Origin: Escherichia coli
GTDB taxonomy: Bacteria; Pseudomonadota; Gammaproteobacteria; Enterobacterales; Enterobacteriaceae
Length of the DNA stretch: 64,000 bases
Assembly: GCF_003334385.1 (NCBI RefSeq)
Contig: NZ_QOWN01000018.1
Direction: 5' to 3' (one strand)
Shown here: positions 2,729 to 62,310 of the stretch, in pieces
How the letters are laid out: every line of letters begins with the position of its first letter
How positions within the stretch are numbered: position 1 is the first letter of the stretch
Position numbers and translations under genes: made by a program
The notes under the pieces: model-generated
Seen by the model: only the letters and a program-made list of their open reading frames with translations
What the model was told of the DNA's origin: nothing
Databases searched by the model: none

Positions 2729-3971
<1,243 letters not shown>

Positions 3972-58949: not shown

Positions 58950-59996
58950 TTAACGTCCTGCTTTCAGCTTCTGATAATACTCTTCATAAATGCTGCTGGC
59001 TGCGCCAACGTCATTCTGCCATTCGCCATTTTTAATGGTTTCAGCATCCGGGTAGAGTGTTTTATCGTTCGCCACTTCTGGACTTAACAGCTTACGCGCC
59101 GCAAGGTTTGGCGTTGGATAACCGATAGTTTCAGCAACCTGTTTTGCCACATCCGGGCGCAGCAGGAAGTTGATCAATTTCAGCGCGCCTTCTTTGTTTT
59201 TGGCATTTGCCGGGATCGCCAGGCTGTCCATCCAGAAAATGCCGCCTTCTTTCGGCCACACCACGTCAATTGGCGTACCCGCCTGGCGTGCAACGAAAGC
59301 AGAACCGTTCCAGATCATGCCGAGGTTAACTTCGCCTTCCATGTACGGGTTCGCCGGGTTATCGGAGTTAAAGGCTGCCACGTTTGGCATCAGTTTTTTC
59401 AGCTCGTTATATGCAGCTTCAATCTCTTTCGGATCGGTGGTGTTACCGGAGTAGCCCAGCTTACGCAGCGCCATCTGGAACACTTCACGGGCATCGTCGG
59501 TCAACAGCAGGCTGCCTTTGTACTCTGGCTTCCACAGATCGGCCCAGCTGGTGACAGATTTCGGATCCACCGCATCACCGTTAACACCAATCGCCGTCGC
59601 ACCCCAGATATACGGAATGGAGTAGTCGTTATTCGGGTCAAAAGGCTTGTTGAGCATGTCTGGATCGAGATTGCTGAAGTTTGTTAACTTCGACTTGTCG
59701 ATCTTCTGGATCATCCCTTCTTTACGCATTTTATCAACGTAATAGGTTGAAGGAACCACCAGATCATAGGCACCGTCTTTGTATGTTTTCAGCTTGGCGT
59801 ACATGGTTTCGTTCGACTCGTAAGTCGAATAGATAACCTTAATACCGGTTTCTTTGGTGAACTGTTCAAGCAGTCCTGGCGGCACGTACTCGGTCCAGTT
59901 GTAGAAATACAGCGTGTTGTTGTCATCGGCGTGAGCGGCGCTCATGCCCAGTGCCAGAGCACCCGCCGCGAGCAGGTGGCGTGACCATTTTTTCAT
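58950..59996 (-). CDS. potD: spermidine/putrescine ABC transporter periplasmic binding protein PotD
   Basis: 348 aa ORF with signal peptide MKKWSRHLLAAGALALGMSAAHA. Confidence 0.96.
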   Translation of the reverse strand: MKKWSRHLLAAGALALGMSAAHADDNNTLYFYNWTEYVPPGLLEQFTKETGIKVIYSTYESNETMYAKLKTYKDGAYDLVVPSTYYVDKMRKEGMIQKIDKSKLTNFSNLDPDMLNKPFDPNNDYSIPYIWGATAIGVNGDAVDPKSVTSWADLWKPEYKGSLLLTDDAREVFQMALRKLGYSGNTTDPKEIEAAYNELKKLMPNVAAFNSDNPANPYMEGEVNLGMIWNGSAFVARQAGTPIDVVWPKEGGIFWMDSLAIPANAKNKEGALKLINFLLRPDVAKQVAETIGYPTPNLAARKLLSPEVANDKTLYPDAETIKNGEWQNDVGAASSIYEEYYQKLKAGR

Positions 59997-60787
59997 TTAA
60001 CGTCCCCTGTGTTACCTTTCGTTTTATCACGAGCAATAAGCTGGCTGGCAATAACCATCACCAGCGACAGCACCAGTAATATGGTTGCCAGCGCGTTAAC
60101 TTCCGGCGATACGCCGACTTTGACCATCGAATAAATTTTTAACGGCAGAATTTCATAACTTGGTCCGGTGACGAACGAAGAAACTACCACATCGTCCATC
60201 GACAGGGTAAAGCTTAACACCCAGCCCGCCGCCACCGCTGGCATTGCCAGTGGCAGAATGATTTTTCGCAGAATGGTAAATTCGCTGGCACCGAGATCTT
60301 TCGCCGCTTCCAGCATTCGCACGTCAAAACCTTTCAGGCGCGAATACACCGTCACCACCACAAATGGCAGGCAGAAGGTGATATGCGAGAACAGCAGCGA
60401 CCAGAAGCCAAGCTGAATACCCAGCAGCATAAACAGCACCAGCAGCGAAATCGCCATCACGATATCTGGTGACATCATCACCACAAACAGCATTCCGCTA
60501 ACGAACGGCTTACCACGAAAGCGATAACGGTACAGCGCAACTGCCGTCAGTGAACCGATAAGCGTAGCAAACGTCGCCGAAAACACCGCCATTGTTAGTG
60601 AATGCTGCGCTGCCTGTAACAGGCTGTCGTTGTTCATCAGCAGGCTATACCATTTGGTGGTAAAACCCTGCCAGTTGATGCCAAAGCGCGAGCTGTTAAA
60701 GGAGTTCACAATCAAAATAATGATTGGGATATACAGGTACGCGTAGATAGCGGTCATAAAACCGCCGCGAAGCAGTCGACCGATCAT
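59993..60787 (-). CDS. potC: spermidine/putrescine ABC transporter permease PotC
   Basis: 264 aa ORF MIGRLLRGGFMTAIYAYLYIPIIILIVNSF...; 4-bp overlap with potD. Confidence 0.96.
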   Translation of the reverse strand: MIGRLLRGGFMTAIYAYLYIPIIILIVNSFNSSRFGINWQGFTTKWYSLLMNNDSLLQAAQHSLTMAVFSATFATLIGSLTAVALYRYRFRGKPFVSGMLFVVMMSPDIVMAISLLVLFMLLGIQLGFWSLLFSHITFCLPFVVVTVYSRLKGFDVRMLEAAKDLGASEFTILRKIILPLAMPAVAAGWVLSFTLSMDDVVVSSFVTGPSYEILPLKIYSMVKVGVSPEVNALATILLVLSLVMVIASQLIARDKTKGNTGDVK

Positions 60788-60810
60788 TCGAGTTCCACCT
60801 TCTTATTCAT
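60784..60810 (-). pseudogene. potB: potB 3'-terminal remnant (last ~8 codons, ...MNKKVELE-stop overlapping potC ATG); rest of potB replaced by prophage DNA
   Basis: Minus-strand frame upstream of potC reads MNKKVELE then TGA overlapping potC ATG (cgaATGAtc); further upstream the same frame is non-PotB-like and hits a stop at 60904-60906. PotB C-terminus recalled from memory as ...NKKVELE. Confidence 0.5.
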
Positions 60811-60953
60811 AAGGTGGAGCACTTTCAGGATTTTGAATTTATTCAATTTTTTCCTTTCTCCAAAATCTCTCCAAAACTTTTCCCCAAAACAAGGCCACGC
60901 ATTTTACAACACTTTTTTCCTGAGATGGTGACGGATATTCCATATGGTGTTTG
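60788..60953. other. probable attL region (prophage/chromosome junction) containing potB tail, potC RBS and A-tract repeats
   Basis: Interval between int stop codon and potC start; potB identity is lost upstream of ~60810; the core cannot be delimited without attR. Confidence 0.45.
60855..60892. repeat. three phased tccaaaa / ccccaaaa A-tract repeats (~11-13 bp spacing) in the attL arm
   Basis: ctccaaaatctctccaaaacttttccccaaaac; helical-repeat spacing typical of intrinsically bent DNA or arm-type/IHF sites in lambdoid att arms. Confidence 0.4.
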
Positions 60954-62072
60954 TCAAATAACCAACTTAACCCATTCCTGACCTCGAGTATCGTTATAGC
61001 GATCGGTGGTAGCCTGGACTTTATGTCCCAGTAATGTTTTTGTATCGACACCCTGTGCGCGGTACAACCGTTCTGACAGGGAGCGTTGTTCATGAAATGT
61101 TGGCGGTGTTTTTCCTGCTGGTGGAATTATTCCAGCCAGATCTCGCGCTTTGGCGAAGTAATCGCTCAGGTTGTCTTTACTCATCGGTTTTGGTTGTTTC
61201 TGGTGCCTACTATGGATTAGGTATGGACTCAACATTCTGTCCCTGCATCCATCAATAACTTCTTTTAACGATACCCCAATTTCATCGCATCGTAGCGTAA
61301 GAGGTAAGGCCAGACGCATTCCGGTTTTTCCTTGGGTTATATGTAGATGTCCATTCCATACATCTGAAAAACGCATGTGGCAAATGTCATCACGGCGCTG
61401 ACCAGTAACAATCGCAAGAAGCATTGCGTTACGGATAAAGTGTTTTTCTGGCGTTGCATTATAAATTTTTTGCCAGTCTTCCAGGGTGAGTCTGGATCTG
61501 GTCACTTTAGGGATCGGTTTACGGGTAGCCTCCAGAGGATTCCATCCAGGAGGAACTTCTCCCGCATGCTGTGCTTCTTTATAAATATCAACCCATAATC
61601 CGCGATTTACTCTTGCTGTGCTGACCATGTCTTTATCCATCCACTCGTCCAGTATTAATGCAAAGTCTCTTACCTCCAGTTCTTTCAATGGGTGGTTTCC
61701 CAGGCGGGAAACCAGGTATGCAGCCATTCGCACTTTTTCTTTGTGGGTTGTAGCTGCAATGTCTCCATTTTTCAGTCGCGAATCCTGTATTTTCAGATAT
61801 CGATCAACCCATGCCTTTAATCTGATACCCCGACGTTTTGTTGCTGATGGACTTTCATCAATTTTGCGCATGAAATATTCTGCTTCTGCTGCAGCTATTC
61901 GCTGATTGGCTGTTGCAGCGATTTTTTCTGCCTTGACTTTGTCTGTCCCAAGTCCGTGAAATTTTCCAGTCACAGGATTTTTATACTGGTAGTAAACCTT
62001 GCCAGTTCTGCGATCAAACTTTTCGTAAAGAGCTGCTACGTCAGTACTGTTTTTTCGTGGCCTCGGTGACAT
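60954..62072 (-). CDS. int: lambda-family tyrosine integrase
   Basis: 372 aa ORF; C-terminus ...FHEQRSLSERLYRAQGVDTKTLLGHKVQATTDRYNDTRGQEWVKLVI closely parallels lambda Int catalytic tail (H-x-x-R, catalytic Tyr); N-terminal arm-binding-like domain. Confidence 0.9.
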   Translation of the reverse strand: MSPRPRKNSTDVAALYEKFDRRTGKVYYQYKNPVTGKFHGLGTDKVKAEKIAATANQRIAAAEAEYFMRKIDESPSATKRRGIRLKAWVDRYLKIQDSRLKNGDIAATTHKEKVRMAAYLVSRLGNHPLKELEVRDFALILDEWMDKDMVSTARVNRGLWVDIYKEAQHAGEVPPGWNPLEATRKPIPKVTRSRLTLEDWQKIYNATPEKHFIRNAMLLAIVTGQRRDDICHMRFSDVWNGHLHITQGKTGMRLALPLTLRCDEIGVSLKEVIDGCRDRMLSPYLIHSRHQKQPKPMSKDNLSDYFAKARDLAGIIPPAGKTPPTFHEQRSLSERLYRAQGVDTKTLLGHKVQATTDRYNDTRGQEWVKLVI

Positions 62073-62310
62073 GGGTTAAAATCTCCTTCAGTGCGTCATC
62101 ATCGCCAGTATGAATTTCCGGCGCAATTCCAGCTTCACCCGGTCCAACAAAGACTGCGCGGCGATCTATTAGCCAGCGACCACGAATTTTTTGTGGTCTT
62201 GGTACGATGTATCCAAGTTTTCCGTATTTCACCAGGGTAGTGTTTGTTATTGGGAGACTGAACCGCTTAGGTTTCCACTCGTCGAGCGTAATCAGGTACT
62301 GTTCGCTCAT
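62041..62310 (-). CDS. xis: excisionase (Xis-like winged-helix DNA-binding protein)
   Basis: 89 aa from ATG at 62310 (MSEQYLITLDEWKPKRF..., compare lambda Xis MYLTLQEWNARQ); directly upstream of and overlapping int by ~30 nt, as in lambda. Confidence 0.7.
   Translation of the reverse strand: MSEQYLITLDEWKPKRFSLPITNTTLVKYGKLGYIVPRPQKIRGRWLIDRRAVFVGPGEAGIAPEIHTGDDDALKEILTHVTEATKKQY

Follow-up and report, generated by a model that had tools for sequence, protein, structure and literature searches.

The three short direct repeats beside the integrase gene in this Escherichia coli DNA are, in our reading, the putative P'1, P'2 and P'3 arm-type sites of a prophage integrase (Int), and the window (the whole 64,000-nucleotide stretch analysed) holds the attL-type junction (B-O-P'), on the int side, of a lambdoid prophage lying in the last codons of potB. 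Judging from sequence comparison, we put the probability of this reading at roughly 85%. It is supported because Int has an arm-binding domain, the P arm holds a further copy of the repeat, the sites are laid out much as in lambda, a homologous triple is annotated in phage 21 and such triples recur across the Int clade. The gene potB was already known as a prophage site, for example for PhiPotB of CFT073 (PMC3573123).

At its right end the window carries, in this order, cobB, ycfZ, ymfA, potD, potC, a 166-bp spacer, int, xis and an exonuclease gene, with the following features:

58950-59996, minus strand: potD
59993-60787, minus strand: potC, the host gene next to the junction; in uninterrupted strains the potB stop and the potC start ATG overlap
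60954-62072, minus strand: int, encoding a tyrosine integrase of the lambda family (372 aa) whose N-terminal residues 1-64 form an Arm DNA-binding domain
62041-62310, minus strand: xis (excisionase), overlapping the int start and named from the annotation of identical or near-identical records

Domain searches matched Int to PF09003 (Arm-DNA-bind_1; residues 1-64, E = 1.3e-21) and to the PF00589 catalytic domain (E = 1.4e-18), and the protein aligns with the lambda Int structure 1z1b over 346 residues (E = 8e-56). Its closest counterparts in true phage records are those of Kp4865-4 (49.5% identity), PPompW (45%), phage 21 (43.7%) and lambda and HK022 (37%). A lambda-type Int with an arm DNA-binding domain needs arm-type sites.

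We searched 5426 complete E. coli genomes and found that those with an intact potABCD match the window only up to 60809, while at least 1396 of the 5426 (at least 26%) carry the full potC-spacer-int junction. The first-pass annotation had pointed out that the motif cluster would be chromosomal coding sequence if it stood in the uninterrupted potB of prophage-free strains; YCCAAAA is absent there, the K-12-type attB (L002) reading ...GAGTTCCACCTTCTTATTCAGCAAACG.... The repeats are phage DNA, not host sequence. One genome, NZ_CM129862.1, shows no difference from the window across the 601 bases searched, and its other prophage junction, about 55 kb away, reads ...TTTCGGTTGCCTTCTTATTCAGCAAACG.... 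From its two junctions we rebuilt attP, which is also present as a contiguous sequence in IMG/VR contigs L054, L057, L058 and L081. Because attB and the two junctions were compared, the core can be set as follows and all DNA rightward of it assigned to the phage:

60798-60809: common core CCTTCTTATTCA, within the potB 3' end, common to attB, both prophage junctions and attP

In the lineage of L057 the common core is 14 bp long (60796-60809). This block of attP/attB identity lies on the potC side of 60850, where the core had been correctly placed, and the repeats do fall between it and the int stop at 60954, as first described. Two phage GenBank records, ON470612.1 and ON470619.1 (L001 and L003; >93% identity), were rejected as sources of free attP since host genes from ycfZ to potC are still attached; with their host flanks (ycfZ, ymfA, potD, potC), they are prophage predictions, not packaged genomes.

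A repeat search of the window returned one family of three 11-nt direct repeats at 60855-60889, bearing out the three tccaaaa-type units first noticed at 60855-60892. In the list below, as for all att sites, plus and minus positions are counted from the presumed overlap centre, 60806 in the window:

60855-60865, plus strand: repeat 1, TTTCTCCAAAA, P'1-like putative arm-type Int site; core TCTCCAAAA at 60857-60865, +51 to +59
60866-60876, plus strand: repeat 2, TCTCTCCAAAA, P'2-like putative arm-type Int site; core TCTCCAAAA at 60868-60876, +62 to +70
60879-60889, plus strand: repeat 3, TTTCCCCAAAA, P'3-like putative arm-type Int site; core TCCCCAAAA at 60881-60889, +75 to +83

The 9-nt cores, beginning at 60857, 60868 and 60881, share the form TCYCCAAAA. 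Start-to-start spacing is 11 and 13 bp (mean 12), so the spacing is regular, as had been claimed, but approximates the helical repeat of 10.5 bp only loosely. YCCAAAA is under-represented in the window, with six occurrences on both strands against 23 expected from shuffles, and half of the six are the repeats themselves. When we scanned for three 9-mers with at most two summed pairwise mismatches and 9-15 bp spacing, 60855-60889 emerged as the sole near-identical triple in the 64-kb window, and none was found in 40 random first-order Markov sequences. The region is AT-rich and non-coding, as would suit low-complexity sequence that arose by chance and has no function; set against a triple that is unique in 64 kb, a motif that is under-represented elsewhere and its conservation across Ints, such an origin is barely credible. 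The triple is real and non-random. Among close relatives, the 27 core-motif positions carry no substitutions, compared with 9 variable sites elsewhere in the arm, a difference that is not significant alone (P ~0.15).

Phased A4 tracts could also shape the P' arm without sequence-specific Int binding, in which case the repeats would mainly be intrinsically curved DNA. We ran the curvature prediction suggested in the first-pass annotation, using a wedge model with Bolshoy/Trifonov parameters. Curvature peaked at 60867 with 24.5 degrees per 30 bp, which is the highest value in 60790-60960 and lies at the 99.5th percentile of the window (mean 8.9). However, a phased A6 control reached 35 degrees, and the 11/13-bp spacing puts the third tract about 90-100 degrees out of phase. 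Curvature also leaves unexplained the conserved non-A half (TCTC/TCCC), the single P-arm copy at a conserved distance and the way in which the 5' half changes between Int groups while CAAAA and the 11/13-bp spacing stay fixed. As the main account of the repeats it is very unlikely. A static bend may contribute; the predicted curvature is high and looks secondary.

The reconstructed attP has a fourth copy of the repeat, ATTCTCCAAAA, in its P arm and in the orientation of the triple, so that the motif occurs in both arms, once in P and three times in P'. After its first 30 bp, the P arm of L054, L057, L058 and L081 is largely dissimilar to that of NZ_CM129862.1, yet in a gap-free alignment TTTCTCCAAAA occupies the identical P-arm position in both lineages. 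Both also carry YAANNNNTTGATW, an exact reverse-strand match to the IHF consensus WATCAANNNNTTR, 17 bp further in than TTTCTCCAAAA at -118 to -106, and a 1-mismatch IHF site, TAANNNNTTGAATAT, at about -49 to -37. The other island kept in this alignment consists of the phage-supplied last potB codons. Such short islands kept between diverged P arms are the strongest internal evidence for function. The P arm of the L057 lineage holds a second, 1-mismatch copy of the arm motif. A search of attP for an inverted P2-like site gave none that was convincing, the best being TATCCATAA at -105 to -97, with 2 mismatches and in one lineage only. The P' arm offers one tentative IHF candidate:

60841-60853, plus strand: weak H'-like IHF candidate ATTCAATTTTTTC, +35 to +47, with 2 mismatches to WATCAANNNNTTR

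Its position and orientation are those of lambda H', and its sequence is not conserved in the related IMG/VR contigs L165-L168.

Another reading makes the repeats sites for an accessory protein (excisionase/RDF, IHF or Fis) rather than for Int. RDFs often bind tandem direct repeats with T/A tracts, and the xis gene adjoins int. For IHF, no match to WATCAANNNNTTR at up to one mismatch overlaps 60855-60889, and IHF-consensus sites lie elsewhere in attP. For Xis, the lambda sites are confined to the P arm, whereas the potB-phage motif is present in both arms, at the positions of lambda P1 and P'1-3. The phage 21 record, moreover, labels the homologous triple as Int attP subsites. We consider an accessory-protein role very unlikely. 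Of the three options put forward in the first-pass annotation, arm-type Int sites are strongly supported, IHF sites fail for the repeats for want of a consensus match, and curvature is compatible with the data but does not explain the sequence-specific conservation.

The repeat search also returned a perfect inverted repeat, TCCACCTT-N9-AAGGTGGA (60794-60818), that brackets the core:

60794-60801, plus strand: B core-type half-site candidate TCCACCTT, on the side of the host, where it overlaps both the end of potB and the ribosome-binding site of potC
60811-60818, plus strand: C' core-type half-site candidate AAGGTGGA, phage side; pairs with 60794-60801; the AAGGTG element here recurs in L165-L168

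The inverted repeat is made up of one host and one phage half-site, and its halves are likely the B and C' core-type sites. The phage half-site varies between relatives whose Ints are 96% identical (AAGGCGGG; positions 60815, 60818 and 60819), and because this half is polymorphic among close relatives, the half-site symmetry is not conserved. Both candidates are unrelated to TCYCCAAAA. From the symmetry of the inverted repeat we infer a 7-bp overlap, TTATTCA, at 60803-60809, which is supported by its fit to the lambda layout; it ends exactly at the end of attP/attB identity.

Binding of the repeats by Int, the division of the sites between integration and excision and the exact points of cleavage are inferences. 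By analogy with lambda, Int would use its small N-terminal domain to bind the high-affinity arm repeats, while the C-terminal domains of the same protomers would bind the weak core-type sites flanking the 7-bp overlap, at about 60794-60818. IHF would bend the DNA between arm and core, allowing each Int to bridge both, and the single P1-like copy about 135 bp beyond the core, together with the IHF-consensus sites near -118 and -49, would complete the intasome.

The extent of the P' arm can be judged from a variant prophage in which a two-gene module is inserted between 60917 and int and the triple is intact beside the core. Since the insert lies outside the triple, the functional arm is bounded to about 60810-60917. 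More generally, prophages whose Ints are 95-98% identical carry differing cargo modules directly after the int stop (L101/L150; L123/L124/L147/L156; L145; L173), examples being a hypothetical gene with a DUF2335 gene and other, unrelated inserts. The L173 module (2918-3821) separates int from the P' arm and leaves the arm sites beside the core. The int-proximal spacer thus appears to be a hot spot for the insertion of cargo genes (morons). At the P-arm end of the NZ_CM129862.1 prophage (L004/L005; 3109439-3116301 and 3158540-3159886) we noted an S6-family autotransporter peptidase (4 kb), an adhesin with a YadA C-terminal domain and a YkgJ-family gene; in the same prophage an IS4 copy adjoins the exonuclease gene.

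The prophage splits potABCD and leaves potC and potD about 55 kb from potAB. The repeats might serve host expression by giving potCD, severed from the potAB promoter, a promoter or UP-like element or an RNA element. The potC gene, which shares its strand with int, starts 70 bp from the repeats, and no minus-strand terminator-like site separates the two genes. Against such a role, our search of 60700-61200 for promoter-like sites and minus-strand terminators found none of either; there is no Rfam match, the fold of the int-potC spacer is ordinary (z = -0.03), and the triple is also found in relatives beside unrelated genes and in free attP. A host-expression element is highly improbable. Because 60700-61200 holds no promoter-like site and no minus-strand terminator-like site lies between int and potC, potCD may depend, in lysogens, on read-through from int (window 60787-60954, minus strand).

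At the other junction, potB stays open after integration: phage-supplied ATEIDD takes the place of its last four codons (VELE), and the product is 287 aa long instead of 285 (L005 8412-9275; window 60788-60809), and the second P-arm lineage (L057) supplies SELDD after V. Phage 21 follows the same strategy of gene-end substitution at icd. Each P-arm lineage also has a hairpin some 35-60 nt beyond the stop codon that the phage supplies to potB (L005 9307-9340; L057 ~3836-3856), shared in place and unrelated in sequence, with a 14-bp stem in one lineage (z = -3.7) and a 7-bp stem in the other; neither is followed by a T-run. These hairpins could terminate potAB or int transcripts or insulate them, or could be a sib-like processing site.

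Literature searches found no paper dissecting the att arms of potB phages, and a search with the literal motif returned unrelated, mostly eukaryotic papers. Our analysis provides a putative attachment-site anatomy for a very common E. coli prophage family, comprising the core, probable overlap, core-type half-sites, and arm-type and IHF sites. It could be used in calling prophage boundaries, designing potB-targeted integration vectors and predicting Int cross-reactivity among lambdoid prophages.

In lambda, arm-type sites are bound by the Int N-domains and core sites by the C-terminal domains, with IHF bends uniting both, and in the integrative complex three N-domains occupy the P' arm and one (B-NTD) occupies P1 (PMC4880445). 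The putative sites of the potB phage compare with those of lambda as follows:

P1: potB phage -135 to -127, lambda -142 to -134
H1: potB phage -118 to -106, lambda -126 to -114
H2: potB phage -49 to -37, lambda -48 to -36
H' (weak in the potB phage): potB phage +35 to +47, lambda +32 to +44
P'1: potB phage +51 to +59, lambda +54 to +62
P'2: potB phage +62 to +70, lambda +64 to +72
P'3: potB phage +75 to +83, lambda +75 to +83

The sites follow one another in nearly the same order in the two phages and at nearly equal distances from the overlap centre, with IHF sites between arm and core; both have a heterobivalent Int with a PF09003 N-domain, and in both int adjoins the P' arm. In contrast, the Ints are only about 37% identical and the motifs are unrelated (C/AAGTCACTAT in lambda, TCYCCAAAA in the potB phage). 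The P' spacing is 10/11 in lambda and 11/13 in the potB phage, lambda P'3 overlaps the int stop whereas the potB-phage triple is 64 bp from it, and a clear inverted P2 site was not found in the potB phage. The lambda RefSeq record (NC_001416.1) places the misc_binding feature 'int 4' at 27814-27854, while consensus matches to P'1-P'3 lie at 27786-27815, and its annotation looks offset.

Comparison with the attP arms of related phages, the other check that had been suggested, bore out the arm-type reading: phage 21 is annotated with a like triple, and 11/13-bp triples recur across the Int clade. In the phage 21 record (OL657228.1), a depositor's note marks a misc_feature at 27563-27599, just before the int stop, as attP with '3 subsites P1P2P3; consensus YYTTCCCCAAAA'. 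Repeat 3 of the window (TTTTCCCCAAAA) fits this consensus, and repeats 1 and 2 differ from it by one change in the CCCC block. The phage 21 triple itself reads CTTCCCCAAAA CTTTCCCCAAAA CCCTTCCCCAAAA, with 12 and 13 bp spacing, and the P arm of this phage has an exact TCCCCAAAA at -127, counted from where icd homology begins; a further copy is inverted and has 2 mismatches. Both phages thus have three tandem CCAAAA-ending repeats in the same orientation between the core and the int stop, and a further copy, about 127-135 bp away from the core, in the distal arm; the core of repeat 3, TCCCCAAAA, is identical to that of phage 21, and the Ints show full-length homology (44% identity). They differ in that two of the three window repeats have TCTCCAAAA instead of TCCCCAAAA, in spacing (12/13 in phage 21, 11/13 in the potB phage), in target (icd versus potB) and in the Int N-domain, which is only about 44% identical. 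The triple is about 50 bp from the core here, whereas phage 21 has a 165-bp icd substitute and a terminator in between. In phage 21 and PPompW, the arm triple directly follows a long phage-borne 3' copy of the target gene (165 bp of icd plus terminator; 121 bp of ompW), and their P' arms would be far longer than those of lambda and the potB phage if crossover took place at the far end of that copy. For the phage 21 icd copy, crossover at the far end is suggested by the P1 distance of -127.

Five other relatives have NNNNCAAAA direct-repeat triples adjoining int with 11/13-bp spacing:

Klebsiella Kp4865-4: triple TTATCAAAA, with a further copy that lies 129 bp short of the record's far end
PPompW: triple TCTGCAAAA
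Providencia PSTCR8lys and Klebsiella ST13-OXA48phi12.4: triples of TCCCCAAAA, the middle copy being CCNCCAAAA (CCACCAAAA or CCTCCAAAA)
IMG/VR contigs L165-L168: three exact copies of TCTCCAAAA; Int 64-65% identical, host junction different

The last of these came from a second scan of viral contigs, by Int alignment, in which most hits were close relatives ending at the int stop and only L165-L168 were informative; they have AAGGTG 46-47 nt before the first repeat, as does the window. The 21-like relatives differ from the potB phage in the 5' tetranucleotide (TTAT, TCTG or TCCC) and in their host targets, and the repeat motif persists even where Int identity is as low as 44%.

Where the arms carry TCTCCAAAA, the Ints share 74-80% identity in the N-domain versus 64-65% overall (L165-L166). 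Int N-domain groups seem to track motif groups, a suggestive pattern in a small sample whose members are not phylogenetically independent. One possible, though doubtful, extension is that the arm site of the 21-like Int clade is modular, combining an invariant CAAAA half and a fixed 11/13-bp triple with a 5' tetranucleotide (TCTC, TCCC, TTAT or TCTG) that tracks the N-domain subgroup. The potB phage would then carry a mixed set, two TCTC and one phage-21-type TCCC, partly readable by the Ints of co-resident 21/e14-like prophages. If so, excision and integration cross-talk could arise between prophages with different core specificities; lambda and HK022 share arm sites and show cross-talk despite different core specificities. 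The attP design described here is that of the lambda intasome with a different arm motif, one that is essentially the motif annotated for phage 21, and it changes no concept.
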